Source: Planctomycetota bacterium (GTDB lineage: Bacteria; Planctomycetota; B15-G4). Taken from it: 64,000 bases of DNA. The position numbers were made by a program, and so were the translations under genes. The stretch is from NCBI GenBank assembly GCA_029259725.1, contig JAJDER010000013.1, positions 8,623 to 72,622 on the forward strand, written 5' to 3'. Under the pieces are notes generated by a model, which saw only the letters and a list, made by a program, of their open reading frames with translations, was not told the origin of the DNA and searched no databases. How positions within the stretch are numbered: position 1 is the first letter of the stretch; each line of letters begins with the position of its first letter. Below are positions 17,260 to 45,131 of the stretch, one piece after another.

Positions 17260-19419
17260 TCAGGGCGTGGTCGCGCGCAGGGCCCCGGTGGCGGCCAGGC
17301 CGTGCGGCGCGGCGAAGTCGGGCGCCCAGCCCTGGAACCACAGCGAGATGCCCGAGGGCACGCCTGAGGGCCAGATCGTGGGCAGCACGACCTGCCCGAG
17401 CCCGTTGGTCGGCAGGCCGACGACGAGGTCGGGCGCGGGCACGAGCACGCCGCCCTTGAACGGCGCGTTCACGTCGGAGAATCCGACCACCAGGGAGAGC
17501 GTGGAGAAGGGGAAGGTGTCGCACGCGGCGAGGCGCAGGTCCGAGAGCGGCTCGAGCGTGCCCGACCCGGAGAGCTTCGGCGCGAAGAGACCGGGCAGGC
17601 CGTTGCCGAGTTCGGTCCACGGATCGTGGTCGACGTGCTCGAGCCGGAAGGTGTCCAGGATCACGCCGGTCGCATCGAGGAACGACACGTCGAGCTGCCG
17701 GTCGTCCACGTCGAGCACCAGCGAGCCCAGGGTGAGCAGGCTGGTGACCATGACGGGGTGGTTGAGCGGTCCCTCGTCGGTGAGCTTGCCCGAGCTGCCG
17801 GCCACGGCGTAGACGGTGCCGTTGTGCGGGCCGACGGGCGTGCGGTAGGCGCCGTCGCCGGCCGGGTCGCCGTCGCCGTCGTCCACGACCATGCACGGCT
17901 CGAAGGTGAAGCCGCCCTCGTAGTGACCGTCGATGAGCATCGACCGCTCATAGCTGTGGCTGTGCCCGTTGAGCACCAGGTCCACGCCGTGATCCTCGAG
18001 CAGCGGCAGGATGTTCTCGCGCATGTCGATCAGGTCGTCTTCCAGGTCGCTGTCGTGGCTGCCCTTGCTGTACGGCGGGTGGTGCCAGTAGGCGACGATC
18101 CACTCCTGCGTGGTGGCCAGCAGATCGGCCTCGGCCCAGCTCCACATGACGCCGCCGGGCGCGCTGCTGCTGCCCTCGCTGTCGAGGCACAGGAAGTGCA
18201 CGTTGCCCCAGTCGAACGAGTAGTAGCTCTCGGTGTTGCTGGCGACGCCGCCGGCCTCGCCCAGCGTCGGCAGCGTGAACAGCGTCCAGTAGGTGAACAG
18301 GCTGTCGTCGTGGTTGCCGCGGGTGGGCCACGCGGGGGAGGCCTGCAGCACGTCGGCGTACTGGTCGAAGAGCGCCGACTCGTACTCGGCGTCGCTGCCC
18401 GCGTCGTAGGCGTTGTCGCCGAGCATCAGCCAGAAGTCGGGGACGCCGCCGTTGAAGGCCAGGAAGGCGTCGCGCACCGACGCGGCCAGCGAGTCGGAGC
18501 TGCCCGAGTCCCCGACGACCCACACGCGGAAGGGGTCGGTGCTGCCGATCGGCGGCGCCGTGGTGAAGGTGTGCGCGACATCGCCGCCCTCGAAGACGTG
18601 GGTCGGCGTGCCGATGTCGTAGTAGTACTGCGTGGCGGGCGACAGGCCGGTGAGCGTGATCTCGTGGTCGAAGGTGTCGACGTTGTCGTCGACCGTGTTG
18701 GTCAGCGAGCCGGGGGCGGCGCCCCAGCGCAGCCGCCCGAGGGTCTGGCTGTCGGTGCGCCAGCGGAGCGTGACCGCGTCGGGGCGCGTGCGCTGGAGGT
18801 AGGGCCCGCGGATCACGATCTCGTTCTCGGCCATGGTCAGCTCCAGGTCGAAGCTGATGTCCGAGCTGTCCGGCGCGCGCTGGTGCACTTCGGCGGCGAG
18901 CGTGTTCGTGCCGGTCACGAGCAGCGCAGGGTCCACGCTGAAGATGACCACCACGTCCTCCTCGCTGCCGTTCGCGGTCGAGGTCGCGAGGCTCAGGTAG
19001 TCCACGCCGAGGGCCGCCATCTCCGAGCGCGCGATCTCGGTGCCGTTGAGGTAGACGATGGCGCCGTCGTCGCGCACCAGCTCCAGCCGGCCGTTGGTGT
19101 AGGGCGACGGGTCGGCGACCTCGAAGGTCGTGCGGAAGTAGGTGGTTGGGAACTTGTCGGTGGAGCTGGGACCGAAGCCGACCTCGGTGGCCTCGTCGCC
19201 GTCGCCGTAGCCGAGGTGCGCCGGCCCGCTGAGCCAGACCGAATCGTCGAAGCCGGGGAGGATCCAGGCGGTGCCCTGATCGCTGCCGTCGTCGAGGTAC
19301 TTCCAGGTCGAGTGTCGCGGGAGCACCACGTCGGTGAGCGTGGTCTGCGCGGCGGGCGCGGGGACGAGCAGCGCGAGCAGCGCGACGCAGGGGAGCGGGA
19401 GCAACACGGTGCGGATCAC
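17260..19419 (-). CDS. Secreted purple-acid-phosphatase-like metallophosphoesterase with N-terminal lectin-like domain and shared C-terminal module
   Basis: GTG 19419 (GGAG 7 nt upstream) overlaps the upstream stop (GTGA). Signal peptide VIRTVLLPLPCVALLALLVPAPAAQ. Metallophosphatase motifs GDSG, GDNAY, GNHD, HHPPYS and GHSHSYER. C-terminal APFKGGVLVPAPD..WPSGVPSGISLWFQGW..ALRATTP. Confidence 0.85.
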   Translation of the reverse strand: MIRTVLLPLPCVALLALLVPAPAAQTTLTDVVLPRHSTWKYLDDGSDQGTAWILPGFDDSVWLSGPAHLGYGDGDEATEVGFGPSSTDKFPTTYFRTTFEVADPSPYTNGRLELVRDDGAIVYLNGTEIARSEMAALGVDYLSLATSTANGSEEDVVVIFSVDPALLVTGTNTLAAEVHQRAPDSSDISFDLELTMAENEIVIRGPYLQRTRPDAVTLRWRTDSQTLGRLRWGAAPGSLTNTVDDNVDTFDHEITLTGLSPATQYYYDIGTPTHVFEGGDVAHTFTTAPPIGSTDPFRVWVVGDSGSSDSLAASVRDAFLAFNGGVPDFWLMLGDNAYDAGSDAEYESALFDQYADVLQASPAWPTRGNHDDSLFTYWTLFTLPTLGEAGGVASNTESYYSFDWGNVHFLCLDSEGSSSAPGGVMWSWAEADLLATTQEWIVAYWHHPPYSKGSHDSDLEDDLIDMRENILPLLEDHGVDLVLNGHSHSYERSMLIDGHYEGGFTFEPCMVVDDGDGDPAGDGAYRTPVGPHNGTVYAVAGSSGKLTDEGPLNHPVMVTSLLTLGSLVLDVDDRQLDVSFLDATGVILDTFRLEHVDHDPWTELGNGLPGLFAPKLSGSGTLEPLSDLRLAACDTFPFSTLSLVVGFSDVNAPFKGGVLVPAPDLVVGLPTNGLGQVVLPTIWPSGVPSGISLWFQGWAPDFAAPHGLAATGALRATTP

Positions 19420-23892: not shown

Positions 23893-24000
23893 GAGGGGCT
23901 GAGAGTGCCGGTTGCGCTTCGCACTCCCCGAATCCGAGGGGAGGGGTACGCTGGTTTCAGCGCCCTCGGTCCACGGTGCGGCGCGCCATGGAGGGAAGCC

Positions 24001-26076
24001 ATGCGCCAGATCGCTCTCGCACTCGTGCCCGTGTTCCTGCTCGCGTCGGTTGTCCCATCGCACGCGCAGTTCACCGACCTGCAGCCCGGCCCCAACTTCG
24101 CGCCGCCCACGCATGAGTTCGGCAAGAACCGTTCCGAGAACATCGACGTCGGCGATGTGGACAACGATGGCGACCTCGACGTGATCGTCGCCAACGGCGG
24201 CGACTTCGGCAACGAGCCCAACCGCATCTTCATCAACGCGGGCGGACTCCAGGGCGGGACCGTCGGCGTGTTCAACGAGGAGACCGCGACGCGTTTCGCA
24301 GGCGTGCCCGACGACGCGAGTCGCGACATCGACTTCGCGGACATCGACGGTGACGGCGATCTCGACGTCTTCGTGGCCAACCGGGGTCACAACAGCGCCG
24401 GGCAGGTCAGCCGCTTCTACGTGAACCAGGGTGGGCTCCAGGCGGGTGCACTCGGGTTCTTTGGCGAGGACACGAACAACCGTTGGGGCGCGCTGCTGGA
24501 CGTTCCGCAAGCTGACCAGGTGTTCGGAGGCGACGCCGGTCCCTGGGAGGACTGGTCCTGCGAGTGTGAGTTCGCCGACCTCGACAACGACGGCGACCTG
24601 GACCTCTTCCACAGCTCGTACGGGCCCTCGATGAATGGGAGCCGACCGAGTCGCATCTTCCTCAACGACGGGGCCGGGGTCTTCGACGAGCTGTTTCCGT
24701 GGGTGGACCCCGGCGCCGACATCATGCTGCACACACGGGAGCTGGCGCTGATGGACCTGGACGGCGACTTCGATCTCGACATCGTCAACGCGAGTCGCGA
24801 CAGCCAGGCCCGCATCTTCATCAGCAACCTCTACAGCCCGACGACCGGCTCGACGCAGCTCTACACGGACACGACGGAAGCGTCGCTCTTCGCGACGGGA
24901 TCGACCGCAAGCGGATTCTCCAACTACGAGACCGAGGTCGCGGACTTCGACGGCGACGGCGACTTCGACGCCTGGATGGGCGACTACTTCGGGGACTATC
25001 GCGACAAGATCCTCCTGAACAAGGGCCTCGATGCGAACGGGGCCGTGGTGTTCCAGGAGTCGAACGGTCCCGGGCCCGTCCTGATCCACGGCGATCCCTT
25101 CAGCCTCGACTTGGAGGTGAACGCCATCGACTTCGATGGAGACGGTGACCTGGACGTGATGGCCGCGAACTTCAGCGGCACGAACCATGTCTACGTGGGT
25201 GGGAACGCGCAGGGCTTGGCGGGCCAGTACCACAACACGACCGGGCAGGGGACCAGCCTCTATCCGCAGATCGAGACTCCGGGCTTTGGGAACAGCGGGA
25301 CGGCGAGGGACGGTGAAGCCGGCGACCTCGACAACGACGGTGACACCGACTACCTGATCGCGAATGACGCCAACCAGGACAACGACCGCTGGGACAACGT
25401 CCTGGGCGTCCCCGACACCCACGCCCCCGAGGCGCTGGACGAGCGCATCGCGGTCGGTCTCGCGGTCGGGTCCGGCGGCGGCGTCGTGGTCAACGTGCAG
25501 CTGCGCGACAACGCCCCGAGCGATCTGATCCGCCTCTACGACGTCGTGCTCGTGCACCAGCCGGGCGACGTCTCCGTCGACATGTTCAGCCAGGGCAGCC
25601 AGCAGTTCCGCGCCGAGATCCCCGCGAGCGCGACCAGCTTCGTGATCCACGCGACGGACCTGGCCGGCAACATCGGCATCTCGAACGTGCAGGACCTCGG
25701 CGGTGCGTTCACGGAACTCGGGTGCGCCGACGCCGGGGTGACGGGAGCCCCGCTCTTCTCGGGGGCCGGCCCGCTCACGGCGGGCTCGGCGGCGAGCTTG
25801 CTCCTGTCGAGCGCCGCACCCTCCGCGCCGGCGATGTTCTTCGTCGCGTTCGGCCCGGGTGGAGCCGGCGCACCGTTCAAGGGAGGCACGCTCAAGGCGG
25901 TGCCGGTGCTGTTCGGGGTCGCGCTCACGACCGACGCCACCGGCAGCGCGGCCATCCCGTTCGTCACGCCGGGCGGTCTCAGCGGTGGCAGCGTGGTCGG
26001 CCAGTGGGCCATCAGCGACGCCGTGGCCAGCGCGAACGCGTCGCTGAGCAACGCGCTGCAGTTCGGCTTCCCGTAG
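24001..26076 (+). CDS. Secreted FG-GAP/VCBS-repeat (integrin-alpha-like beta-propeller) protein with shared C-terminal module
   Basis: ATG 24001 (GGAGGGA upstream). Signal peptide MRQIALALVPVFLLASVVPSHA|Q. At least 7 Ca-binding-type repeats (DVDNDGDLD, DIDGDGDLD, DLDNDGDLD, DLDGDFDLD, DFDGDGDFD, DFDGDGDLD, DLDNDGDTD). C-terminal APFKGGTLKAVPV..SLSNALQFGFP. Confidence 0.85.
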   Translation: MRQIALALVPVFLLASVVPSHAQFTDLQPGPNFAPPTHEFGKNRSENIDVGDVDNDGDLDVIVANGGDFGNEPNRIFINAGGLQGGTVGVFNEETATRFAGVPDDASRDIDFADIDGDGDLDVFVANRGHNSAGQVSRFYVNQGGLQAGALGFFGEDTNNRWGALLDVPQADQVFGGDAGPWEDWSCECEFADLDNDGDLDLFHSSYGPSMNGSRPSRIFLNDGAGVFDELFPWVDPGADIMLHTRELALMDLDGDFDLDIVNASRDSQARIFISNLYSPTTGSTQLYTDTTEASLFATGSTASGFSNYETEVADFDGDGDFDAWMGDYFGDYRDKILLNKGLDANGAVVFQESNGPGPVLIHGDPFSLDLEVNAIDFDGDGDLDVMAANFSGTNHVYVGGNAQGLAGQYHNTTGQGTSLYPQIETPGFGNSGTARDGEAGDLDNDGDTDYLIANDANQDNDRWDNVLGVPDTHAPEALDERIAVGLAVGSGGGVVVNVQLRDNAPSDLIRLYDVVLVHQPGDVSVDMFSQGSQQFRAEIPASATSFVIHATDLAGNIGISNVQDLGGAFTELGCADAGVTGAPLFSGAGPLTAGSAASLLLSSAAPSAPAMFFVAFGPGGAGAPFKGGTLKAVPVLFGVALTTDATGSAAIPFVTPGGLSGGSVVGQWAISDAVASANASLSNALQFGFP

Positions 26077-26137: not shown

Positions 26138-26653
26138 CTAGAGCGGCTCGATCACGATCTGCACGTCGGCCGCGGTGCCCACGTCGCCCCAGGTGAGGCC
26201 CTCCGCGGGCTGCACCTTCACCACGAAGCTGATCGTCGTGGCGCGCCCTTTGGGCTGCTCCTGACCGAGGAGTAGCGCGGCGAAGAACCTGGCGTTCTCG
26301 AGGTGGATGTCCGACGCCGTCTGTACGACGGGCTCGGTGGACCCGAGTTCCCGCGTCTGGTGGGTCCACAGCGTGCCGAGCACGACCTGACCGAGCTTCA
26401 CCGAGTGGACGACGGACACGATGCGCGCGGGGCCCGGCGACAGGTCCGGCATGCACGGCTCGGTCACCGAGATGAACGACTCGACCACGGCGCCTTTCGG
26501 CGCGGGGGAGAGGCGGTGCTTCGTGACCCACGGTTGCGGGTCGTTGCCCGCGGGCTGCGCGGGCGTCGGCGTGGGTGTGTCCTGGATCGCGGTGAGGGCG
26601 GACACGCCCGTCAGCATCAGTGCGACCGCAGTGAGCCTCAGCGTCTTCATCAT
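26138..26653 (-). CDS. Small secreted protein (171 aa), unknown function; last gene of the STK-sigma operon
   Basis: ATG 26653 with GGAGGAG upstream. Signal peptide MMKTLRLTAVALMLTGVSALTA|IQD followed by a Pro/Thr linker. No family recognised. Confidence 0.5.
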   Translation of the reverse strand: MMKTLRLTAVALMLTGVSALTAIQDTPTPTPAQPAGNDPQPWVTKHRLSPAPKGAVVESFISVTEPCMPDLSPGPARIVSVVHSVKLGQVVLGTLWTHQTRELGSTEPVVQTASDIHLENARFFAALLLGQEQPKGRATTISFVVKVQPAEGLTWGDVGTAADVQIVIEPL

Positions 26654-26694
26654 GGGGTTCTCCTCCGCGCATCCGGGTTCGAGCACACGCCAGC

Positions 26695-28527
26695 TCACGG
26701 CGTCGTGCCGCTCAGCGCGTTGCTCGCCGCGAAGCCCGCCGGGCCCGTCGCGTCGGCGATCCACACCTGGTAGTGGAGCGTCAGCGCGGCCGGCACGCCG
26801 GACGGCCAGGGGGCCGAGAGTTGCCAGCCACCGGCGGCGTCCGTCATCAGGCCGCCGACGACGATGTCCGGCGACGGGGTCAGGATGCCGCCCTTGAACG
26901 GCAGCGCGGCCACCGAGGACCCGATCACCATCCAGGCGGCGCTCGACGCCGCGGCGGACGCGAGCGCGAAGTTCACCGGGTCGTCGGCCAGCAGCGTGCC
27001 GTCCGCTCCGAGCACGGGCTCGCCGGTCGCGCCCGCCAGCGCGTTGCCGAGGTCGACCCAGGGATCCAGCCCGGCCGCGAAACGCAGCTTGTGCACCCGG
27101 CCGATGCCGCCACCGTCGTAGATGACGACGCAGTGGACGTCACCCGTGACGGGGTGGCTCTCCAGCGCGACGAGGAAGCCCAGGCCCGACGCGAAGTCCT
27201 GCGCCGCCGTCGCCGATCCGCCGGCGAACTCGACCGTCTTGATCCAGCCGCCGGTCCAGTCGCCGATGAACAGGCGGCCGTCGTGCTCCGCCGGATAGCT
27301 GCCGCCCGGATAGAACGTCCCGCCCACCGCGCAGGATCCGACGAAACCGTTGCCCGGCGCGCCGTTGGTGTCGAGGTGGACGCCGGCCGGCTTCAGGTCC
27401 GAGGCCTGGAAGTGGTGCCACGCGAGTGCCGGGTTCGTCGGCGTGCCTGCCTGCGCCGTGTTGCAGTTGGGGAAGGTCGGGCCCGGCGGGTTGAAGCCCT
27501 GGTAGGACCCGACCTGCGCGAAGCCTTCCTGGCACGGCCAGCCGAAGTTCTCGCCGCCCTGGCAGAGGTTGAGCTCCTCGCGCAGGAACCAGCCCACGTC
27601 GCCGATGGCGAGCACGTCCGAGCTGCCGTCCAGCGTGCCGGCCGGCGCGAGCGCCACGCGGAACGGGTTGCGCAGGCCCAGCGCCCACACACGGCTCGGG
27701 TTGCTGGCCGGGTCCCCGTCGTAGAACGGATTGCCCGGCAGGCCGAGTCCGGTCGCGGGATCGATGCGCAGCACCTTGCCGGCCATGCTCTCGAGCTGCT
27801 GCGAGCGGAACGCGCCGGCGTCCTGCGCGGCGGGTGTCGGCCCCTTCTGGCCCGAGACCGGGTGCACGAAGTCGTCGAAGCCGGCGTCGTCGTTCCCGCC
27901 ATTGTCGGTCAGGTCCCAGTGCGCGCCGTCGCCGGCGGTGACGAACAGCGTGCCGTCCGACGCGAAGATCAACGAACCGTTGCTGTGGCTGTTGTGCAGC
28001 GAGGCGATCGCGTCCGGGACGGCGCCGTCCGGCAGTGGGTGCCCGATGAGCACCTCACGGCTGGCGAGGTCCGCGACGAGCTGGCCGGCGGACAGCGTCG
28101 CCTTGTAGCGCGCGAGGCGCGAGAAGCCGAACGAGTTCGAGGGCCCGTAGGCCGGGTCGTTGCCCGGCTGCGACGACACCGGGTAGAGCAGGTAGACCCA
28201 GCTCGTGGCTCCGTCGTCCGCCGCCCACCCGGGATGGAAGGCCAAGCCGAGCAGGCCGCGATCCCAGTCGCTGTTGATCTCGGTGGACAGGTCGATGAAC
28301 GGCAGCGGCTGCACCGCGCTGCCGTCGTGCACCAGGACGACGCCGCCCTTCTGCAGGATCAGCATGGTGCCGTCCGGCGCGAACTTCATCCCGGTGGGAT
28401 CGTCGAACGCGCCGGGCACGGGCACGAGTTCGAACCCCGGGGGAAGCGTCTGGGCACTCGCCGGTACGTCGAGACCGCAGACGGCGGCGAGCATGAGCAC
28501 GAGCGACAAGCTGCTGGCGCGGAACAT
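26695..28527 (-). CDS. Secreted PQQ-dependent sugar dehydrogenase-like beta-propeller (glucose/sorbosone dehydrogenase family) with shared C-terminal module
   Basis: ATG 28527 (GGGAGGA upstream). Signal peptide MFRASSLSLVLMLAAVCGLDVPASA|Q. GSDH-family blocks (LPPGFELVPV..FDDPTGMKFAPDG, DRGLLGLAFHP, HNGGSL-like HSNGSLIFASDGTLFV, GLRNPFR, GKVLRIDP). C-terminal LPFKGGILTPSPD..SNALSGTTP. Confidence 0.8.
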   Translation of the reverse strand: MFRASSLSLVLMLAAVCGLDVPASAQTLPPGFELVPVPGAFDDPTGMKFAPDGTMLILQKGGVVLVHDGSAVQPLPFIDLSTEINSDWDRGLLGLAFHPGWAADDGATSWVYLLYPVSSQPGNDPAYGPSNSFGFSRLARYKATLSAGQLVADLASREVLIGHPLPDGAVPDAIASLHNSHSNGSLIFASDGTLFVTAGDGAHWDLTDNGGNDDAGFDDFVHPVSGQKGPTPAAQDAGAFRSQQLESMAGKVLRIDPATGLGLPGNPFYDGDPASNPSRVWALGLRNPFRVALAPAGTLDGSSDVLAIGDVGWFLREELNLCQGGENFGWPCQEGFAQVGSYQGFNPPGPTFPNCNTAQAGTPTNPALAWHHFQASDLKPAGVHLDTNGAPGNGFVGSCAVGGTFYPGGSYPAEHDGRLFIGDWTGGWIKTVEFAGGSATAAQDFASGLGFLVALESHPVTGDVHCVVIYDGGGIGRVHKLRFAAGLDPWVDLGNALAGATGEPVLGADGTLLADDPVNFALASAAASSAAWMVIGSSVAALPFKGGILTPSPDIVVGGLMTDAAGGWQLSAPWPSGVPAALTLHYQVWIADATGPAGFAASNALSGTTP

Positions 28528-28569
28528 GCGTTGTCCTCCCGGGACCCGAATGAGGACCAACGGTATCAC

Positions 28570-29187
28570 TCATCCCGGCGCCTGCCTCCGGCGGAGGACC
28601 TTGCCCAGTTCGACCAGGGCCTGGGCGTGCATCATGCGCGCGGCGTCCGAACTCGGGCGGCCGGTCTGCTCGGCGATGGACGCCCAGGACTCGCCCACGT
28701 AGAGCCGCATCACGATCAGGTCGCGATGTTCGGCCGTGAGTTCGTCGAGTGCCGCCTCCAGGAGTGCCGCCTGTTCGTCCGCGGCGGCTCGCTCGACGGG
28801 GAGAGTCACGTTCGCGGTCGGATCCACGCCGATGGTCCCGCTGGCTCCGGGCGCGACCAGGCGCTGCTCGCGCCGGGCGTCCCGCTTGGCTGCCCCGTGC
28901 CGATCCGCGGCCGCGTAGACCTGTCGCTCGGCCAGCGTCGCGAGCCACTTGATCAGGCTGGCTTCATCCCGGACTTCGAATCGCTCGAAGGACCGGACCG
29001 CCTCCAGGAAGGTCTCCTGCAGGATGTCGGCACTGTCCACCCGGCGTCGGAGTGCGGCACCGAGCCGCGCACGCACGACCTTGCGCACGCGTTCGTAGTA
29101 GCGGGCGCAGAGCGCGTCGAGGGCGGCCGCGTCCCCGGCCTGGGCGCGTTGCACGAGATCGAGCGAGCGGGTGACGTCTGCGTCCAT
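28570..29187 (-). CDS. ECF-type sigma-70 family factor (STK-linked type)
   Basis: 205 aa. Region 2 (DSADILQETFLEAVRSFERF..SLIKWLATLAERQV), a long sigma2-sigma4 linker, and region 4 HTH (LIVMRLYVGESWASIAEQTGRPSSDAARMMHAQAL). It lies 33 nt downstream of the kinase gene on the same strand. Confidence 0.85.
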   Translation of the reverse strand: MDADVTRSLDLVQRAQAGDAAALDALCARYYERVRKVVRARLGAALRRRVDSADILQETFLEAVRSFERFEVRDEASLIKWLATLAERQVYAAADRHGAAKRDARREQRLVAPGASGTIGVDPTANVTLPVERAAADEQAALLEAALDELTAEHRDLIVMRLYVGESWASIAEQTGRPSSDAARMMHAQALVELGKVLRRRQAPG

Positions 29188-29220
29188 GGCTGAGAGAGCG
29201 GCGTGGCCGCTGGGAACCCA

Positions 29221-31215
29221 TCATACGTCGTCCTCCGCTCCGTCCTCCGCTCCGTCCAACGCGGGCTCTGCCGGGGCGGGCTGGACCGCGAACCAGCACA
29301 CGAAGCGATGCAGGTCCTCGGGCCACGCATCGTGCTCGGGAGCGGAGGCTTCCGTGGCCAGGGCCTCGGCCAGGTTCCGGCGCTGCGTGTCCGTGACGGC
29401 GACGGCGCCACCGCGATTCGATGGGGCGGCTTCGAGCAGTTCGCGAGCCCGGTCGATCCCGACACCGGGCGATCCGGCTGGAAGGAGATACGCCTCGCGC
29501 GCCAGGGCGTCCAGCCACTCCGCCAGCTCCGCTGCGGGTCTGGCGGTGGCGAAGACCCAGAGCCCTTCGTAGCCGACCTCGGCCACGGGCTCGCCCACCG
29601 TCGCGCCCCCGACATGCACCGCACCGGCTGCGGGTTCCACGAGCAGGTCCCAGTCCGACGCCTCCGGCGCTTCGGTCGGCAGCAGCAGGACCGGCTTGCG
29701 GGGCAGGATCCAGTCGGCGCTGCGCTGTCGACCGAGGACCGAGAGGACGTAGACGTGGACCGGGGCCTCGGCCTGGATGCGGACACCCAGGATGTCGCCG
29801 GCGCGAGCGATGTCGTCCAGCTCGGTATCGAGAGGCACGAGTCGATGGCCGTCGTACCGCGCAGCCGTGAGCAGGACCGCGGCACCGGGCGTCCGGGTGT
29901 TCATCCACCAGGCCACCACCACGAGCAGCCCTGCGGCCAGTGCAGCGAAGACGTGACGGCGTCGCCGCGCCAGTGCCACGAGCCGCGTGAGCGGACCCGC
30001 ACCGCGCTCCAGGAGCGCGACCGGGACTTCTGTCCCGCCGAGGTATCGATCCAGATCGTCACGCAGGTCGCGTGCGCTGGCATAGCGCCGGGTGGTGTCG
30101 GCGTGCATGGCCTTGAGGCAGATGGCGTCGAGGGCGGCCGGCACCGTCGGATCGACTTCGCTCGGCGTGCGCAGGTCTCCGGCCACGATCCGATCCATGA
30201 CGACGCTGACGCTGTCCCCGGAGTAGGCCCGATCCAGTGTCAGCAACTCGTAGAGGATCACGCCGAGCTGGTACACATCGGTTCTCGGGTCGGCCCCGAC
30301 AGTCTTGCGGCGCACCTGTTCCGGCGACAGGTACGGGGGTGTGCCGACCAGGCCCCGGGTCACGGCGCCCACGCCGCTGCCGAAGGTGGCGGCCAGACCG
30401 AAGTCGAGGACGACGGGCGTGCCGTCTCCGCGCACCAGCACGTTGGACGGCTTCAGGTCGCGGTGCAGGATGCCGGCACCGTGCGTGGCCTCGAGTGTTG
30501 CCGCCAGACCGCGCGCGAAGCCGGAAACGGTGCACCACCACGAGCCGCTGTCGACCGGGTGCTCGTGACCCTTCGGCAACGGCTTGTCCACGGCGGCCAG
30601 CAGGGCCCTTCCCGACGTGGGTGCTCGCCGCCGCCCGTCGGCCGAGGTCTTGAGCGACGCGCGCACGCGCTCGAGCACTTCGTCCAATCCTCGGCCCTCG
30701 ATCAGGTCCATGACCAGGAAGGGGCCGAACGCGCTCCAGCCGGCCTCGTGGATGGCCACCACGCCGGGGTGCTGAAGCGATGCGAGCGCACGACACTCCT
30801 GTTGGAAACGCTCCTGCGGGGAGAACGCGCTGCCCTCGGCTTGTTCCGCCGTCACGATCTTCAGGGCGACGAGCCGGTCGAGCTGCAGGTCGTGCGCTTC
30901 GAAGACGCGGCCCATGCCGCCGGCACCGATCTCGCGGACGAGGCGATACCGATCCACGAGGATCGCACCGGGACCGGCCGCGGGCCGGAGTGGGTGCGGG
31001 GTCGGCGCGGTCACGACGGAGGACTCGATCAGGGCGCGCGCACCCTGCGCGTCGGCGACCAGCTGCCGGAAGACGACGGCCTCGTCGAGACCGAGCCTCG
31101 CGGCCCAGACGTCCATGTCCCCGGGATCACCACCCTCGAGCGCTTTCAGGTAGAGCGCAGCGAGCCGGTCGGGCGAGCCGGCACCCGCGGGGTCGGGGAG
31201 AGTCGGATTCGTCAT
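29221..31215 (-). CDS. Hanks-type Ser/Thr protein kinase with one TM helix and an extracytoplasmic DUF4384-like domain
   Basis: ATG 31215 (GGAGGCG upstream). GAGGMGRV, VALK, HRDLKPSNVL, DFGLA, GTPPYLSPE. TM segment HVFAALAAGLLVVVAWW. The external domain has the pattern GDILGVRIQAEAPVHVYVLSV (DUF4384-like, from memory). Confidence 0.9.
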   Translation of the reverse strand: MTNPTLPDPAGAGSPDRLAALYLKALEGGDPGDMDVWAARLGLDEAVVFRQLVADAQGARALIESSVVTAPTPHPLRPAAGPGAILVDRYRLVREIGAGGMGRVFEAHDLQLDRLVALKIVTAEQAEGSAFSPQERFQQECRALASLQHPGVVAIHEAGWSAFGPFLVMDLIEGRGLDEVLERVRASLKTSADGRRRAPTSGRALLAAVDKPLPKGHEHPVDSGSWWCTVSGFARGLAATLEATHGAGILHRDLKPSNVLVRGDGTPVVLDFGLAATFGSGVGAVTRGLVGTPPYLSPEQVRRKTVGADPRTDVYQLGVILYELLTLDRAYSGDSVSVVMDRIVAGDLRTPSEVDPTVPAALDAICLKAMHADTTRRYASARDLRDDLDRYLGGTEVPVALLERGAGPLTRLVALARRRRHVFAALAAGLLVVVAWWMNTRTPGAAVLLTAARYDGHRLVPLDTELDDIARAGDILGVRIQAEAPVHVYVLSVLGRQRSADWILPRKPVLLLPTEAPEASDWDLLVEPAAGAVHVGGATVGEPVAEVGYEGLWVFATARPAAELAEWLDALAREAYLLPAGSPGVGIDRARELLEAAPSNRGGAVAVTDTQRRNLAEALATEASAPEHDAWPEDLHRFVCWFAVQPAPAEPALDGAEDGAEDDV

Positions 31216-31414
31216 CGCGTCTGCGCCTCCAGGCGCCGGGTTGCGGCTTCCCATCCTATGGGCACCGCCAGCCGTGAGCGAAGGTAGCCGGAGCGGTCGG
31301 GCCTGGATCCCGGGTTTTCTGGAGGTCGTCCCTTCGGTCGAGCGGCCCGCCTCCCATGTCGGGGGCGAGCGGAGCCACGAGGGCTTCCTCGGCCACGAAC
31401 CGGAGGAAACGAAG

Positions 31415-33160
31415 ATGTTCACCAGGACCCTGATCAACGCCGGCCTCGTTCTCGCCAGCCTGGCCGCCCCCGCGGCCCCCCAGCTGCTCTCCGACGAACA
31501 GGTCTGGGACTTCGAGAACAAGAAGCACCTCTCCCGGATGCCGACCACCCAGACGGAGGTCGACTCCCGCATCCGCGTCACCTGGATCGACAAGGACTGC
31601 AAGCAACTCGGGAGAGGCATCGCCTTCGAGGGCAAGCAGGAAGGGGGCTGGGGTTCGCTGCTGCTGAACCACTTCTCCGAAGGACTCGGGACGTTCCGTT
31701 CCCGCTGTTACCTGGTCGGAGACGACGACTCGCTGCTCGCCCTCGAGACCCGCGGCGCGATTCGCATCGCCACGGTCGACCACGACTACTACCTGTTCGC
31801 GGTGAAGACGCCCGGCGGAATCGGAGCGTTCCTCGCGGCCGACAGCGAGGCCGTCTCTCCGCTCTTTGATCTGGGTCTCCCCGGTGCGAGCGCGTGTGAC
31901 CTGGAGCTCGTCCTGTTCGAGACCGAAGTGGCGGCACGGGCGCGGGCGGTCGGACCCTGCAACGGAGACGCCGAGCCGGTCCTGGGAGCCTGGGTTGACA
32001 TCGGGACCTACCCGCTGGACGCCGGCGCCGACGGGAGCGCCGACGGGGACGACGACGACCTCGATGAGGAGACCGAGGAGGAACTCCACCAGCTCTCGAA
32101 GCTGCTCCAGGGTCAGTTCGCCTACCTGGTGGGGGCCTCCGGCCTGAGCAAGAAGGAGACGCGGGTGGTCTTCAACCAGCTGTGGACCGAAGCGGATTTG
32201 CTGAGCGGGTTGTTCCAGCATGACTTCTTCACCGAGGTCACCGCGATCCAGGCCGACCTCCGTGACCTGCAGACGCAGGCCGCTGACGCGAACGACGCTC
32301 CGGGGCAGCAGGTCGCCCTGGCGGACGGCGCCGCCCAGATCGGCGACCTCCGCGATCGCACCGAGGCCCTGCTGCTGGCTCTCGATGGGTCCACGGTTTC
32401 GGGTGCGTCCGGCGTCGGCGGGGCGGATGTGGCGCCCGGGCCGCTCGCCGAGACGGTCCAGAAGAAGCTCGCGATGAAGAACCTGAAGGTCGTGTCCAAG
32501 AACCTCGTTGCCGCCCAGAAGGGCGCGGACAAGGGCAGCGTGAAGTTCATCAAGAAGTACGTGTGCCTGCTGCAAAAAGCGCTCGAGCGGCTCACGGCGA
32601 CCGGCTACAACTTTCGCGGCTTCAAGGCCACGCGCATCGCGCACCTCCCGCTGCCAGCCCTGGTCAAGCCCGACGTGACCCCGTCCGGTGGCGGCGGCGG
32701 TGGCGGCACGGGGAACGCCACGCTCCAGGCCGACTTCGTCTACGGCACGGGCTTCACCGAGAGCCTGAGCGCGTCGGGCGCCGACGTGACGGCCGAGTAC
32801 CAGGTGTCCTCGGGCTTCACCTTCATCTCGGCCACGGGCCCGAACGGCGTGCTCAGCATGCAACTGGGGTACGACCCGTTGACCGAGGGTGCCCAGGTGT
32901 TCAACAGCAAGGTGTTCGCGGCGCCCTTCACGGGCAGCCTGCACAGCTTCAACTGGCAACCCCTGGGCGCCCCGGGTGGCTTCCTGCCGCCGCCCTTCAG
33001 CATGGGTGGATCCACGGCGGCCCTCTCGGTCGAGGTGGAGATCACGCAGAACGCCGGCGGTGAATTCGACCTCACCTTCTCCGGGACGCTGTTCGGCATC
33101 AACGGCTCCACGGCCCAGATCGACGGCTCGGGCTCGATGGCCTGGACCGTCACGAACTGA
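31415..33160 (+). CDS. Secreted 581-aa orphan protein (N-domain, acidic linker, helical Lys-rich region, poly-Gly, C-terminal beta domain)
   Basis: ATG 31415 (GGAGGA 8 nt upstream). Signal peptide MFTRTLINAGLVLASLAAPAA|PQ. DGDDDDLDEETEEE, KKLAMKNLKVVSKNLVAAQKGADKGSVKFIKKY, SGGGGGGGTG. No family recognised. Divergent from the kinase gene. Confidence 0.6.
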   Translation: MFTRTLINAGLVLASLAAPAAPQLLSDEQVWDFENKKHLSRMPTTQTEVDSRIRVTWIDKDCKQLGRGIAFEGKQEGGWGSLLLNHFSEGLGTFRSRCYLVGDDDSLLALETRGAIRIATVDHDYYLFAVKTPGGIGAFLAADSEAVSPLFDLGLPGASACDLELVLFETEVAARARAVGPCNGDAEPVLGAWVDIGTYPLDAGADGSADGDDDDLDEETEEELHQLSKLLQGQFAYLVGASGLSKKETRVVFNQLWTEADLLSGLFQHDFFTEVTAIQADLRDLQTQAADANDAPGQQVALADGAAQIGDLRDRTEALLLALDGSTVSGASGVGGADVAPGPLAETVQKKLAMKNLKVVSKNLVAAQKGADKGSVKFIKKYVCLLQKALERLTATGYNFRGFKATRIAHLPLPALVKPDVTPSGGGGGGGTGNATLQADFVYGTGFTESLSASGADVTAEYQVSSGFTFISATGPNGVLSMQLGYDPLTEGAQVFNSKVFAAPFTGSLHSFNWQPLGAPGGFLPPPFSMGGSTAALSVEVEITQNAGGEFDLTFSGTLFGINGSTAQIDGSGSMAWTVTN

Positions 33161-39729: not shown

Positions 39730-40779
39730 ATGGCCGCTCCCGGCTCCGACGCTCCCGTCTTCGTGGTCGGTCACCCGCGCTCGGGGACCACGCTGCTGCG
39801 GCTGATCCTCAACGCCCACCCGCGCATCGTGATCCCGCCGGAGGGGCACGTGGTCAGCTTCCTGCGTCGCTGCGAGCAGAAGTACGGCCCGATGAGTGAC
39901 GACGACGCCTTCGAGCGGGCCATCGACCGGCTCGCCCACAAGGACCGCCAGAAGGAGTGGGGCTTCACGCCGGACCAGATCATCGACGTCTGCCTGCAGG
40001 GCGAGCACAGCCCGGCCGGCATCTTCGCCTCGCTCATGTCGCTCTGGACCGAGCAGTCGGGCAAGCCGCGCTGGGGCGAGAAGACGCCGGGCAACTACCG
40101 CTACATCGAGGACGTGACCGGCTGGTTCCCGAAGGCGCAGGTCGTGCACATCGTGCGCGACGCGCGGGACGTGGCCGTGAGCTGCCTGACGCCACCCTTC
40201 TCGGATCGGTACGACAAGGGCAACGAGTACGAGGTCGCCCTGCGCTGGCGCGACGCCGTGCACCGCGGCCGCAGGGCGGCCCAGGCGCTGGGCCCGCAGC
40301 GCTACACGGAGTTCCGCTACGAGGACCTGACCGCCGAGCCCGAGCGGCTGGTCCACGCGCTGTGCGACTTCCTGCACGAGGACTTCGTGCCCGAGATGAT
40401 GGACTTCCACCGCGGCGCCCAGGGCAAGCTTTCGCGCGGCGAGCAGTCGTTCCACAAGCGCACCCACGGCGAGGTCGACCGCAAGCGCGTCGAACGCTGG
40501 CGCCGCGACGTGCCGCGCGAGTTCGTGATGCGGGTCGAGGGCATGGCGGGCAAGGAGCTTGCTGAACTCGGGTACGAGCTCTCGGGGTTCGAGCCGACGC
40601 TGGGGTTGCGGGCCGAGTTCCTGGCGCAGAAGCTCAAGCCGCGCAAGCTGACCCGGACCTTCAAGCCCAAGGGCGGGGGCTCGAGCGACAAGCAGAGTCG
40701 CTCGGCATCCGGCACCGGTGGGCCCGACGCCGGGGGGCCCGACGCCGCGGTGGCGCCGGACGACGCGCAGGCCGACTGA
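39730..40779 (+). CDS. Sulfotransferase-family protein
   Basis: VFVVGHPRSGTTLLRLIL (5'-PSB), VVHIVRDARDVAVS (3'-PB), YEDL. 349 aa with a Gly/Ser/Asp-rich tail. The sigma gene starts 19 nt downstream. Confidence 0.8.
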   Translation: MAAPGSDAPVFVVGHPRSGTTLLRLILNAHPRIVIPPEGHVVSFLRRCEQKYGPMSDDDAFERAIDRLAHKDRQKEWGFTPDQIIDVCLQGEHSPAGIFASLMSLWTEQSGKPRWGEKTPGNYRYIEDVTGWFPKAQVVHIVRDARDVAVSCLTPPFSDRYDKGNEYEVALRWRDAVHRGRRAAQALGPQRYTEFRYEDLTAEPERLVHALCDFLHEDFVPEMMDFHRGAQGKLSRGEQSFHKRTHGEVDRKRVERWRRDVPREFVMRVEGMAGKELAELGYELSGFEPTLGLRAEFLAQKLKPRKLTRTFKPKGGGSSDKQSRSASGTGGPDAGGPDAAVAPDDAQAD

Positions 40780-40798
40780 GCGCGGCGGGGGAGCCCAC

Positions 40799-41476
40799 AT
40801 GGACACGGACGCCCGCCCCCCCGACCCCACTCCCGCGGACCCGCCGCCCCCTGACCCGGACGACGAGTCGGTCACGCGTCACCTCGCCCGCGGTGCCCAG
40901 GCCGGCGACGAGGCGCGCTTCTCCGCGCTGTGCGAACGCCTCGCCCCGGCGCTCTACGGCTGGTCGGTGCTGCGCATCCCGCCCGAGCTGCGCGCGCGCC
41001 TGCAGCCCGAGGACCTGATGCAGGACGTGTGGCTGCGCGCGTTGTCGGCCTTCGGGAGCTACGACGCCGATCGCGGACCGCTGCGCCCGTGGTTGTTCCA
41101 GGTGGCCAAGTACACGCTGCTCGATGCGCTGCGTCGAGGGCGCGTGCGCGTGCAGCCGCGCCAGGAGCCCGCGCCCGACGGAGGTTCGGACGCCGGCGGC
41201 GGCGCGCGGCTCTCCCAGGTTCCCGACGACGCCACCGCGGTCAGCCAGCGCGTGGCCCGCCGCGACGACGTGGCCGCGTTCCTCGCGCACGTCGAGACCC
41301 TGCCCGAGGAGGACCGCGACCTGCTCGTGCACCACGGACTCGAGGGTCTCAGCCTGGGCCAGGCCGCCGAGCGCCTCGGTCTGGAGAAGGCCGCCGCGCA
41401 GAAGCGCTGGCAACGATTGCGCGCGCGGCTTGCGGAGCACGGCTGGCCCGAGGGCATGTTCGAGCCGGGCGCATGA
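40799..41476 (+). CDS. ECF-type sigma-70 family factor
   Basis: ATG 40799 (GGGGGAG upstream). Pro-rich N-terminus. Region 2 PEDLMQDVWLRALSAFGSYD..LRPWLFQVAKYTLLDALRR. Region 4 LLVHHGLEGLSLGQAAERLGLEKAAAQKRWQRL. Confidence 0.8.
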   Translation: MDTDARPPDPTPADPPPPDPDDESVTRHLARGAQAGDEARFSALCERLAPALYGWSVLRIPPELRARLQPEDLMQDVWLRALSAFGSYDADRGPLRPWLFQVAKYTLLDALRRGRVRVQPRQEPAPDGGSDAGGGARLSQVPDDATAVSQRVARRDDVAAFLAHVETLPEEDRDLLVHHGLEGLSLGQAAERLGLEKAAAQKRWQRLRARLAEHGWPEGMFEPGA

Positions 41477-41489
41477 GGCCGGGCGGCAC

Positions 41490-44400
41490 TCAGCGTCCGT
41501 ACGCGTCGACCCAGTCCGGCAGCTCGTCGATGGCAGCGCGCTCGCGGGCCACGCTCACCAGGTCCACCGGCCAGACCCGTGCTGTTCCGTCCTGACCGGC
41601 GGTCACGACGAAGCGCCCGTCTGGGCTGAACCGCGCGCGATGCACCGGACCCTCATGCCCGGTCAGGCGCACGATGAAGCGTTTGTCCCGCGGCTCCCAG
41701 ATCAGCGCCGAACCGTCGTAGCTCGCGGTGACGTACAGGTCTCCGCCCGGCTGGCGATCGAGGGTCGTCGTGCGGTCACTGTGGTGGCCGGCGCTGTTGT
41801 AGATGTTGTTCGACGCGGGGTCCTGCAAGAGCACGGTCGGGTTCCAGCGCGCGGTGACCAGCACCTCGCGCCCACGACCCGTGAAGCGCACCGTGCCGAG
41901 AGTGGTCGTCGGCTGCTCGGCCAGCAGGGAACCGTCGTCGAGATTCCACCAGCGGATCTTGGTGTCCTGGCTCACGGCGACCAGGACCTGGCCATCCGCG
42001 GAGACGTCGACGTCGTAGATCGTGTGCTGCGCGTGCGAAACGGCGGTCTCCGCCCAGCGTTCGAGGACGTGGCGTGCGTCTCCGCTGGCCGTGTCCCAGA
42101 CGCGGATGCTGCGGTCGGAGGCGCCGGTCACGACCAGGCGGCTGTCGGGCGTCCAGGCCACGCAGGCGATGTCCGCGCCGTGGCCCGTGAGCTCCCGACG
42201 GACCGCTCCCGTCGAAGCGTCCCGCAGCAGCAGCCCGCCGGCCAGGTCACCGCTGAGCAACCAGCGCCCGTCGGGGGATGCGCTGAGGACCGTGACCTCG
42301 GCGTCGTGAGACCGCGCGGGCGGGCGGGGTGCTCCGGTGGACGTGTCCCACAGCCTGACGGCCCCGTCGGCCGAGGCCGTGGTCACCGAGGCGCCGCCGT
42401 CGACGTAGACGCCGGCGACCACCCGGCTCTGGTGATCGAGCGTCGCGCGCGGCGAGCCATCGGCCGTATTCCACAACCTCGCCGTACCGTCGGACGATGC
42501 GGTCAGCACGGACCGCCCGTCGGGTGCGAAGGCGACATCCCGGACCGGACCGGTGTGCCCCCGGAGCTCGAGCAGGCCGGGGCGGTCGGGGAGGTACCAC
42601 ACGTCCGCCCAGCTATCACCGCCCTGGCTGATCAGGCGCGTGCCGTCGCCGGTCCAGTGCACTCCGAAGATCATGCCGGAGGAGCCGCGCAGGACCTCGA
42701 CCAGCTCACCGGTGACGGCATCGTGGATGCGCACGACGCGGTCGTAGCTGCCGGTCGCGAGACGGCTTCCATCGGGTGAGTAGTCCGCGCAGTACACGGC
42801 GCGCGAACCCTGGTCGGGCAACTCGATCAGGCGCTCGCCCGTGTGGGCATCCCAGACCGACGACGGCGAAGGATGCGGTGTGGTGATGTCGCCCGGGTCG
42901 CAGGTGGTCACGATCCGGGTGCCGGTCGGGTCGAAGGTCACCGAGTGCACGATGCCCGTGTGTTCCAGGACGAACCGGGTCGTGCCGTCCGACAGGTCGT
43001 GCATGGCCACCGTGCCGTCGCGCGAGGCGGTGGCGAGGCGGGTTCCGTCCGGAGCGAAGGCGGCGGTGGTGATGAGGTCCGCGTGGCCGCCGAACGAGGC
43101 CAGGAGGGTGCCCTCGGGAACGGACCAGAGGCCGGCGCCAGCGGTGGCGGGTGCGTCGTCGCTGCCCGGTGTGCCCGAGATGGTGACGAGGAGATCACCG
43201 GTCTCGTCGAACAGCACGTCGCTCACGGCGCCCAGGTGGTCGGACAGGAGCAGGCCGAGGCCGTCGCCGCCGCTGGTCCACAGGCGCGCGGTGCCGTCGT
43301 TGCCGGCGGTGGCGAAGTGCTCGCCATCCGGAGCGAAGGCCACGTCGCGTACGGAGTCCTCGTGGGCCTCGTATTCGAAGGCGACGTCGCCGGTCGACGC
43401 GCGGTGCAGTCGCACCACGCCACTCTCGTCGCCGGTCACGATCCAGCTGCCGGTCGGGTCGAGGTCGGCCTTCCGGGCACCCGAGAATTCCAGAGAGAAC
43501 ACCGACTCGCCCGAAGCCAGGTCGTACAGGTTCAGGCCGTTGCGACAGACCAGCATGCGCTCACCGAACAGGGACAGGTCCATCCCCCGTCCAGGAGAGC
43601 CGCGGACCTTGATCCGGTGCTCGAGTCGGCTTCGCTGCAGCGCGGCGAGCAGGGCGTTGTTGGACTCGAATCCCGGGCTCAGCGACGCGGCCTCCAGCGC
43701 CATCGTCAAGGCCGCCGTCGGGTTGTCCTCGGCCACGATCATGGCCAGGTTGGCGATGGCCTGCCCGCGAGCGCGAGACAGCGCCTGCTCCTTCTCGTCG
43801 CTCTCGGTGCGCACGTCGGCGAGCAGCGCGAGCGTCACTCCGAGCCCGATGCCGAGCACGACGACGAGCAACAGCCCGGACATCGCCAGGGCGGGATTGC
43901 GCTGGACCCAACGCCGCAGATGCACGAGGGGACCCGAGCGGCGCGCGGTGATCGGTTCGTACAGACGCACGCGACGCAGGTCTTCGGCCAGCTCGAGCGC
44001 GTTGCCGTAGCGGCGCTGGCGGTCCTTGTCCATGGCCACGGCGAGGACGACGACGAGGTCCGCGGGCGCCGCCGGGCTCAGGCGCGCGGGTGAGACGGGC
44101 TCCTCGTTGCAGATGGCCTGCTCGAGCCGGTTTCCCGAACCGGAGAAGGGACGCTGGAGCGTGAGGCACTCGTAGAGCGTGACCGCGAGCGAGTAGACGT
44201 CGGTGCGCGCATCGAGCTCGCGACCATCGCCGAGGATCTGCTCGGGGCTCATGTACGCGGGCGTGCCGAAGGCCTCCCCGGAGCGGGTCAGCGTCGGGGT
44301 GCCGTCCTCGGTAGGGCGTGCCAGCCCGAAGTCGAGGATCACGGGCTCCCCGCGCTGGTCGACCATCAGGTTGGCGGGTTTGACGTCGCGGTGGATGACG

Positions 44401-45131
44401 CCGGCTTCGTGAGCGGCGTGCAGCGCCCGGGCGGCACGTTCGAACACGGCCAGCAGGCGACGCACGCCGACGGGATCGCCCGGACCGCAGACGACGCCGC
44501 CCGGCGTGTCCGCGGCGACGGTCGATCCGGGGCCTCCGCCCGCGATGCTGGTGGATGCTGGCGTCGAAGACTCGGTCGCCGAATCCGCCGCCGGGTGGTG
44601 ACCCTGCTGGGCGCGTCGGGCACGCTTGACGAGTTCGGCGAGGGTCTCGCCCTCGACCGCGCGCATGGCCACCCAGGGCGGGTCCGCATGCAGGTCGGCG
44701 CGATGCACGGCGCACAGCCCCGGGTGGTCGAGTCGTGCGACGATCTCGACTTCTCGCCGCAGCCGTGCACGCCGCGCGCTCGACAGGACGCCGGCCGGCG
44801 TGCGGATGATCTTGAGCGCCACGTCACGTCCGAGGGCCGTCTCTCGCGCCAGGTACACGGTGCCCTGGCCACCGCGGCCCAGTTCGCGCTCGATCGTGAA
44901 CCCGGGAATCTCCGGCGGCGTCGGAGGCTCGATGTCGGCGCTCTCCGGGAACATCGACGCGCTCTCGGCCGCGAGCAGCCGCACGTGCTCGGCGGCCACG
45001 TCGTCCTCGTATCCGGGGAAGCGCGCGAGGTAGTCCTGCAGCGTGCGCTGCCGCCCTTCGCGCCGGTCCCTCAGGAACAGCTCGACGAAGTCGAAGACGT
45101 GCGACGCCGTGTCGAGTTCGGCGGGATCCAC
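41490..45131 (-). CDS. Ser/Thr protein kinase - TM - WD40 beta-propeller protein (1213 aa)
   Basis: GRGGQGTVY, VALK, HRDVKPANLM, DFGLA, GTPAYMSPE. TM segment ALAMSGLLLVVVLGIGLGVTLALL. At least 12 WD40-type repeats (DGTARLW, DGTVAMHD, DRVVRIHD, DGAVRLWD, DRSIRVWD, DGTARVWP ..). Confidence 0.9.
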   Translation of the reverse strand: MDPAELDTASHVFDFVELFLRDRREGRQRTLQDYLARFPGYEDDVAAEHVRLLAAESASMFPESADIEPPTPPEIPGFTIERELGRGGQGTVYLARETALGRDVALKIIRTPAGVLSSARRARLRREVEIVARLDHPGLCAVHRADLHADPPWVAMRAVEGETLAELVKRARRAQQGHHPAADSATESSTPASTSIAGGGPGSTVAADTPGGVVCGPGDPVGVRRLLAVFERAARALHAAHEAGVIHRDVKPANLMVDQRGEPVILDFGLARPTEDGTPTLTRSGEAFGTPAYMSPEQILGDGRELDARTDVYSLAVTLYECLTLQRPFSGSGNRLEQAICNEEPVSPARLSPAAPADLVVVLAVAMDKDRQRRYGNALELAEDLRRVRLYEPITARRSGPLVHLRRWVQRNPALAMSGLLLVVVLGIGLGVTLALLADVRTESDEKEQALSRARGQAIANLAMIVAEDNPTAALTMALEAASLSPGFESNNALLAALQRSRLEHRIKVRGSPGRGMDLSLFGERMLVCRNGLNLYDLASGESVFSLEFSGARKADLDPTGSWIVTGDESGVVRLHRASTGDVAFEYEAHEDSVRDVAFAPDGEHFATAGNDGTARLWTSGGDGLGLLLSDHLGAVSDVLFDETGDLLVTISGTPGSDDAPATAGAGLWSVPEGTLLASFGGHADLITTAAFAPDGTRLATASRDGTVAMHDLSDGTTRFVLEHTGIVHSVTFDPTGTRIVTTCDPGDITTPHPSPSSVWDAHTGERLIELPDQGSRAVYCADYSPDGSRLATGSYDRVVRIHDAVTGELVEVLRGSSGMIFGVHWTGDGTRLISQGGDSWADVWYLPDRPGLLELRGHTGPVRDVAFAPDGRSVLTASSDGTARLWNTADGSPRATLDHQSRVVAGVYVDGGASVTTASADGAVRLWDTSTGAPRPPARSHDAEVTVLSASPDGRWLLSGDLAGGLLLRDASTGAVRRELTGHGADIACVAWTPDSRLVVTGASDRSIRVWDTASGDARHVLERWAETAVSHAQHTIYDVDVSADGQVLVAVSQDTKIRWWNLDDGSLLAEQPTTTLGTVRFTGRGREVLVTARWNPTVLLQDPASNNIYNSAGHHSDRTTTLDRQPGGDLYVTASYDGSALIWEPRDKRFIVRLTGHEGPVHRARFSPDGRFVVTAGQDGTARVWPVDLVSVARERAAIDELPDWVDAYGR

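Follow-up and report, generated by a model that had tools for sequence, protein, structure and literature searches.

Extracytoplasmic function (ECF) sigma factors linked to protein kinases are abundant in Planctomycetota and Acidobacteriota. To our knowledge, just two kinase-ECF pairs have been studied, both belonging to group ECF43, and we know of no member of ECF59-62 or ECF217 that has been studied experimentally. Here we describe a Hanks-type Ser/Thr kinase and an ECF sigma factor that head a string of four minus-strand genes in a 64,000-nt stretch of DNA (hereafter the window; contig JAJDER010000013.1, positions 8,623 to 72,622) from a Planctomycetota bacterium. The window belongs to a metagenome-assembled genome (MAG) of 4.79 Mb that is 84% complete and has 71% G+C; the relatives with which it was compared are Planctomycetota MAGs. 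An earlier note on this DNA, made from the sequence alone, had placed the kinase, the sigma factor, a secreted sugar dehydrogenase, and a small secreted protein in one compact regulon with its target enzyme.

Genomic surveys predict kinase linkage for groups ECF43, ECF59-62, ECF217, and ECF283 (PMC7826278, PMC8999054). Direct sigma phosphorylation has been shown for EcfP and EcfK and is predicted for ECF59-62, ECF217, and ECF283 (PMC8999054, PMC7826278). The DxxDxxQE motif of region 2.2 has a core-binding role, as it forms the surface that contacts the beta-prime clamp helices; ECF43 is defined by the loss of the acidic residues of this motif and by a conserved, phosphorylated Thr at its position 3, which stands in the context STTA in EcfP, QTTA in the consensus, and QATE in EcfK (PMC13147305, PMC8999054). 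The kinase-linked groups outside ECF43 keep a DAED-like motif with Ser/Thr in or near it (PMC8999054). In PknS, the partner kinase of an ECF43 factor, 81 N-terminal residues are predicted to form 3-4 helices, the role of which is unknown (PMC13147305).

By published description, the locus in the window resembles groups ECF59-ECF62 and ECF217 (PMC7826278, PMC8999054): they come from the same phylum, have a Hanks kinase as a neighbor, and lack a co-encoded anti-sigma factor, and the window sigma factor also keeps a DAED-like motif with Ser/Thr in or beside it. We are confident that the locus belongs to this known planctomycete kind of kinase-associated ECF pair without an anti-sigma factor. The pair itself is an ordinary member of an already predicted class, and the secreted genes that trail it are specific to this genome.

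Our neighborhood analysis showed that the kinase and the sigma factor form a conserved two-gene module. A total of 243 sigma homologues were found, mostly in Planctomycota MAGs, with hundreds at 50-62% identity. Linkage was counted in 32 close loci from species-representative genomes, 29 of which were informative after three contigs had been dropped as too short. A kinase adjoins the sigma homologue in 22 of these loci (22/32 of all, 22/29 of the informative ones); most of the 22 have the order kinase-then-sigma on the same strand, and some are sigma-then-kinase or divergent. Among four further loci with called genes, three have a kinase beside the sigma gene (one kinase-sigma pair with a 9-nt gap, one with a 4-nt overlap, and one sigma-kinase pair), and one has no kinase. 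In the genome of the window itself, a kinase is the neighbor of all six sigma paralogues (36-53% identity) and also of several more distant ECF factors. The pair is thus co-conserved in relatives and paralogues, which answers the reservation in the earlier note that kinase and sigma factor might not be co-conserved elsewhere. No anti-sigma gene adjoins the pair, the operon has no room for another gene, and no zf-HC2 (zinc-type anti-sigma) match was found in the whole window; the kinase-ECF pair without an adjacent anti-sigma factor was therefore described correctly. The window contains a second pair, in which an ECF sigma gene, 40718-41476(+), is convergent with the gene for a 1213-aa kinase-WD40 protein, 41490-45131(-).

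The sigma factor consists of sigma2 and sigma4 domains only (Sigma70_r2, Sigma70_ECF, and r4_2). It matched PF04542 at 31.2 bits (cut-off 24) and PF07638 at 30.7 bits (cut-off 21.1) and scored 24.0 bits with PF08281 (r4_2), slightly below the cut-off of 25.7; with 62.1 bits against TIGR02937 (cut-off 42.9), it belongs to the ECF superfamily. The best specific model was TIGR02984 (Sig-70_plancto1), matched at 117.8 bits and hence below its cut-off of 183.75; in this shortfall from the nearest curated model (118 versus 184 bits), the window sigma factor differs from ECF59-62 and ECF217. The nearest solved sigma factors are Escherichia coli sigma-E (RpoE) and Pseudomonas aeruginosa AlgU (E 1e-18), which share the sigma2-linker-sigma4 layout and uncharged residues at motif positions 2 and 3 (DVPD). 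Unlike the window locus, which has no such partner, RpoE and AlgU have membrane anti-sigma factors, RseA and MucA, which control them by way of regulated proteolysis.

Sigma residues 51-54, at the start of the DxxDxxQE motif, read D-S-A-D where the stretch is usually acidic, as the earlier note had pointed out, and the Ser found there is conserved in the family. The motif takes the form [DE]-S-G-D in 90 of the 119 family members compared. D or E occupies position 1 in 117, Ser (108) or Thr (5) occupies position 2 in 113, Gly occupies position 3 in 91, and every member has D at position 4 (D54). Of the six members that lack Ser/Thr at position 2, five have Ser at position 3 and one has Asp there. 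Counting both positions, 118 of the 119 members thus carry Ser/Thr, the sole exception having Asp. An acidobacterial family of kinase-linked sister sigma factors carries D-T-x-D. The near-invariance in the 119 members and the D-T-x-D of the sister family argue that a hydroxyl residue at region 2.2 matters, and the Ser/Thr is a plausible phospho-acceptor candidate.

The pairs EcfP/PknT of Vibrio parahaemolyticus and EcfK/PknS of Xanthomonas citri likewise consist of a transmembrane (TM) Hanks kinase and a sigma factor without an anti-sigma factor. Further likenesses to these ECF43 systems are a hydroxyl residue within the core-binding motif of region 2.2, a long linker with Ser/Thr (EcfK is phosphorylated at T104, T106, S108, and S110), and about 80 helical N-terminal residues ahead of the PknS catalytic domain (PMC13147305). 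However, the window sigma factor cannot be filed under ECF43, because D51 and D54 are both kept and position 3 is Ala/Gly rather than Thr: ECF43 factors have lost the acidic residues (STTA, QTTA, QATE) and are phosphorylated at position 3, whereas the Ser of the window sigma factor is at position 2. A kinase neighbor and the lack of an anti-sigma factor are shared with that group. The linker between regions 2 and 4 spans 47 aa between the Pfam matches; it is long but not, as had been claimed, unusually so, exceeding that of E. coli sigma-E by about 10 residues. Its Ser/Thr positions are not conserved in the sigma family.

The kinase has a Hanks-type Ser/Thr catalytic domain (Pkinase, aa 90-378, E 1.5e-33) with an intact GAGGMG G-loop and intact VALK, HRDLKPSN, DFG, and SPE motifs, and the nearest solved kinases are PknB, StkP, and PknA. 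The RRRR sequence just before its single TM helix would, by the positive-inside rule, place the C-terminal domain outside the cytoplasm. This putative sensor domain is kept in 17 partner kinases, which aligned at 16-27% identity, and its conservation is a modest addition to the earlier reading. An AlphaFold2 model built with 18 homologues (predicted local distance difference test score, pLDDT, 82.6) showed a beta-sandwich, then three helices, and then a returning strand; a Foldseek search of the PDB with this model gave just generic Ig-like matches (TM-score <=0.35). The domain had been called DUF4384-like, a label that did not survive comparison with the hidden Markov model (HMM) of DUF4384 (PF14326): aa 401-664 gave no match even at E<=10, and a search of the own genome likewise missed the region. 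Since the model is a beta-sandwich, the domain may nevertheless be distantly related to DUF4384. It is unlike the periplasmic domains of PknT and PknS.

The catalytic domain is preceded by an N-terminal helical module that is conserved in the partner kinases of the sigma family in all gene orientations, with the consensus LAAEYL.R...GE..DL....ARL.....R.EFR.LV..A.R....LP. In the own genome, an HMM of the module matched eight sigma-adjacent kinases, a further kinase, C14, that is also sigma-adjacent, and two others, and it matched none of the approximately 22 remaining kinases, several of which have a different N-terminal motif. The module is therefore restricted almost wholly to sigma-adjacent kinases in this genome. 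The N-terminal extensions of the two kinases in the window, both given as approximately 90 aa and helical in the earlier note, measure about 88 and 76 aa, and a helical extension is indeed shared by the partner kinases; the approximately 76-aa extension of the second kinase matched the module HMM weakly (E 1e-3). The sole match in a profile search of the PDB covered 35 residues of the UPF0307/YjgA-like protein 2p0t (E 7e-5), which we judged to be a helical-hairpin resemblance. No sequence similarity to PknS was detectable. The simplest reading would be that the module docks the sigma factor.

We propose that the single-pass receptor kinase would sense a periplasmic signal through its beta-sandwich/helical domain and would control the ECF sigma factor whose gene begins 33 nt further downstream, without the help of an anti-sigma factor. 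The N-terminal helical module would recruit the sigma factor, and the kinase domain would phosphorylate it, either on Ser52 (where region 2.2 begins) or within the linker between regions 2 and 4. Because both of these parts touch beta-prime of RNA polymerase, phosphorylation would be expected to strengthen the binding of sigma to core, by analogy with EcfP/PknT and EcfK/PknS. The secreted glucose/sorbosone dehydrogenase (GSDH)-type beta-propeller enzyme, which bears a C-terminal surface domain common in this lineage, and the small secreted protein would probably be read through from the same transcript in this genome only. As a whole, this explanation, a planctomycete kinase-sigma module in which the kinase controls the sigma factor and transcription likely continues into two secreted genes, is in our view probable. 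The balance tips slightly in favor of the kinase phosphorylating the sigma factor directly, and Ser52 is a tentative choice for the site. A bolder extension is that the family represents a second kind of sigma phospho-switch, in which two of the three acidic DAED residues are kept beside a near-invariant Ser at position 2, phosphorylation tunes core binding rather than creating it, and the module is a sigma-recognition domain not yet described in bacterial Hanks kinases; we hold this to be rather doubtful.

The locus leaves the general picture of kinase-linked ECF factors unchanged and provides a concrete case from the unstudied groups. What it offers beyond the known class is modest: the [DE]-S-G-D motif, that is, a conserved Ser in an otherwise intact core-binding motif, a kinase module that tracks adjacency to a sigma gene, a conserved sensor domain, and two same-strand genes as candidate outputs. 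If the Ser or the module proves functional, the case would show how groups other than ECF43 are switched. The positions of the features are given in Table 1.

Table 1. Features of the kinase-sigma locus and the genes that follow it (positions are those of the window)
Feature	Positions	Strand	Remarks
Ser/Thr kinase gene	29221-31215	minus	664 aa; GGAGG 9-10 nt 5' of ATG
Kinase N-terminal extension	30952-31215	minus	aa 1-88; helical core ~55-60 aa
Single TM helix of kinase	29902-29955	minus	~aa 421-438, VFAALAAGLLVVVAWWM; RRRR just before; read from translation
Putative periplasmic sensor domain of kinase	29224-29907	minus	aa 437-664, ~228 residues
ECF sigma gene	28570-29187	minus	205 aa
Sigma region 2.2 motif D51-S52-A53-D54	29026-29037	minus	start of DxxDxxQE; reads D-S-A-D-I-L-Q-E
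GSDH-type protein gene	26695-28527	minus	610 aa; GGGAGG upstream
Dehydrogenase tail domain	26698-27087	minus	~125 aa, C-terminal
Small secreted protein gene	26138-26653	minus	171 aa; GGAGGAG upstream
Intergenic region between kinase gene and divergent gene for secreted 581-aa protein	31216-31414	.	199 nt

The four genes lie on the minus strand exactly as first described, with gaps of 33, 42, and 41 nt from the kinase gene through the sigma and dehydrogenase genes to the small gene. All four frames have a G+C content of 0.84-0.94 at third codon positions (GC3) and of approximately 0.5 at second positions (GC2), and overlapping alternative frames do not show this pattern. The kinase, dehydrogenase, and small genes have GGAGG-type ribosome-binding sites upstream, and a sequence scan revealed no terminator-like hairpin or site within the string. 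Judged from the spacing, co-transcription of the four genes is plausible. The sigma factor may have the two secreted proteins among its targets. Upstream lies the divergent gene for the secreted 581-aa protein; a gene for a TPR-CHAT protein and, downstream, a convergent gene for an FG-GAP protein are the other neighbors.

The dehydrogenase gene product matched GSDH (PF07995) at 79.5 bits against a cut-off of 25, scored far below the cut-off of TIGR03606, and carries a signal peptide and a C-terminal tail; it is a secreted protein of the GSDH beta-propeller family. The nearest solved structures are 2ism and 3a9g. It shares the six-bladed beta-propeller family signature and the signal peptide with the soluble PQQ (pyrroloquinoline quinone)-dependent aldose sugar dehydrogenases E. 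coli YliI, Pyrobaculum PaeASD (3a9g), and the Thermus protein 2ism; it is distant from 2ism (53 bits) and differs in its additional C-terminal beta-sandwich tail of approximately 125 aa. In the 84%-complete genome, PqqC went unmatched and PqqE drew just weak radical-SAM matches below the cut-off; the PqqC search was silent in the control genomes too. Because neither PqqC nor a PqqE at cut-off level was found in this incomplete genome, "PQQ dehydrogenase" is used here as a family label and not for an activity.

The small protein carries a signal peptide, and its gene has a GC3 of 0.94. It matched no Pfam or NCBIfam family, and a word-indexed search returned just the protein itself; a full HMMER scan of 1.8 billion representative proteins revealed 14 remote homologues of 163-199 aa with 26-33% identity. 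The protein therefore belongs to a thinly populated family of secreted proteins whose function is unknown. Three of the remote homologues were looked up, and all were on contigs of less than 2 kb.

Several observations weigh against the explanation proposed above. Both Asp residues of DxxDxxQE and its Q-E are retained in the sigma factor, and E. coli sigma-E, which is active, has DVPD in the aligned position, so that the window sigma factor is not demonstrably inactive when unphosphorylated. Ser52 lies one residue before the position of the ECF43 phospho-threonine. A kinase is missing within 5 kb in 7 of the 29 informative close homologues, most of which still have the Ser. The dehydrogenase and small genes are unlinked to the sigma and kinase genes in every relative examined. 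In addition, the ECF promoter search upstream of position 31215 that the earlier note had suggested was run without success: enrichment of two-block motifs (5-mer, N14-19, 4-mer), a crude method, was examined in 16 regions upstream of homologous kinase-sigma operons, and no shared ECF-type motif emerged, the best count being 7/16 versus 6-10 in shuffles. Five upstream regions in the window had no block pairs in common and no GGAAC/CGT-type matches. Neither a sigma-70-like promoter nor a shared ECF-type two-block motif was found in the 199-nt region 31216-31414, which is the sole place where one promoter could serve all four genes.

These points bear on two other accounts of the pair. The N-terminal module of the kinase could be a zinc-free anti-sigma-like domain that holds the sigma factor at the membrane until autophosphorylation or dimerization releases it, by sequestration and with no charge switch. 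The confinement of the module to sigma-adjacent kinases and its conservation across gene orientations would fit such a role; so would the near-canonical core-binding motif, since a sigma factor of this kind may need restraint rather than activation, and the presence in the same genome of a kinase, C186, with a true N-terminal HxxxCxxC anti-sigma motif. However, residues 1-88 contain no His and no Cys, so that the ligand motif HxxxCxxC of ZAS (PF13490) is absent, a degenerate ZAS domain was rejected when hhalign against eight ZAS domains of the own genome gave a probability of 0.9%, the PDB profile search yielded no solved anti-sigma factor, and the structured part of the module has just about 55-60 residues. 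We consider sequestration quite unlikely. Alternatively, the adjacency may reflect an expression unit only: the sigma factor would be active once made and controlled transcriptionally, as are several ECF groups (PMC8999054), the kinase would have other substrates, and the Ser would play a structural part at N1 of the region 2.2 helix. The retention of D...D..QE, the functionality of sigma-E with DVPD, and the several homologues that retain the Ser without a nearby kinase agree with this account; however, a linkage that persists over three gene orientations and six paralogues would be difficult to account for if kinase and sigma factor had no direct functional tie, and the kinase bears a module specific to sigma-adjacent kinases. 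Such a purely transcriptional arrangement is improbable to much the same degree.

A weightier question is whether the dehydrogenase and the small protein belong to the regulon at all. Target genes are commonly encoded beside their ECF regulator (in line with PMC7826278), so that co-encoding, which the earlier note had considered unusual, is a common arrangement. The compact regulon did not withstand comparison with relatives, as the two secreted genes are not co-conserved with the pair; for the same reason, a regulon would be specific to this locus, and it is unproven. Homologous sigma loci continue with a radical-SAM gene on the other strand, a PMT_2 glycosyltransferase, unknown genes, or the kinase itself. 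A GSDH gene was near the sigma gene in only 1 of the 32 loci, as a distant gene 2.5 kb off, and the GSDH orthologues (53-58% identity) of four same-family genomes have no sigma, kinase, or small gene and no tail within 5-7 kb. A local rearrangement may thus have put the two genes downstream of the pair, with a promoter of their own within the 3' end of the sigma gene. This would agree with their GC3, which is 0.94 in both secreted-protein genes (26138-28527) versus 0.85 in the kinase and sigma genes (28570-31215), and with their own strong Shine-Dalgarno sequences. However, the gaps of just 42 and 41 nt on one strand, the lack of a terminator-like site between the genes, and the absence of a recognizable promoter upstream of the dehydrogenase gene speak for read-through from the kinase-sigma transcript. 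An origin outside the regulon is a real possibility, though not the account that we prefer. The dehydrogenase link concerns this locus only and should not be generalized.

The tail of the dehydrogenase is a domain of wide occurrence. A tblastn search detected 118 copies in the 4.79-Mb own genome, nearly all of which end at a stop codon; other copies in the window are at 13019-13384(-), 17263-17625(-), and 45294-45656(-) and at the C-terminus of 23905-26076(+). The consensus is ...APFKGG.LVP.PD....GL.TD..G...WP.G.P.G..L..Q.W..D.AGP.G.AASNGL..TTP. The carriers belong to many enzyme classes, including GSDH, FG-GAP, PMT_2 glycosyltransferase-like, and purple-acid phosphatase-like proteins, and those in metagenomes include reprolysin, beta-helix, peroxidase, and other proteins. 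No Pfam or NCBIfam family matched the tail. Its AlphaFold2 model (pLDDT 94.4) is an 11-strand beta-sandwich, for which Foldseek found no specific match in the PDB, generic Ig-like ones at most.

One sigma homologue, at L001:8001-8603 (55% identity), lacks a kinase within 5 kb, and its motif is E-D-G-D, with Asp in place of the conserved Ser. The open reading frame located 107-1862 nt downstream of it encodes a secreted trypsin-like protease, the C-terminus of which resembles the tail domain (AFQGGVLCVAPP...VQCWSRDP...LSDGLRFTIGP). The idea that the Ser is lost where the kinase is missing was rejected as anecdotal: it fits only this locus and L013, which has the motif E-A-E-D and only a distant kinase 2 kb off, and six other kinase-less loci keep the Ser.

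In the own genome, a paralogous sigma gene (37% identity) with a divergent kinase gene lies approximately 7 kb from a GSDH paralogue (34% identity) at G000:C185:35641-44876, which may be a coincidence. The kinase with the true HxxxCxxC zinc anti-sigma motif, G000:C186:20804-21011(-), carries it just before the catalytic domain and is thus an anti-sigma-kinase fusion; it adjoins no sigma gene that we found. Near the locus in the window, GC3 is 0.90 in two further genes for secreted proteins, the FG-GAP gene and that for the 581-aa protein, and 0.83 in the cytoplasmic CHAT-TPR gene. The 581-aa protein, encoded at 31415-33160(+), belongs to no family; its sequence includes a signal peptide, a GGGGGG run, and an acidic DGDDDDLDEETEEE stretch.

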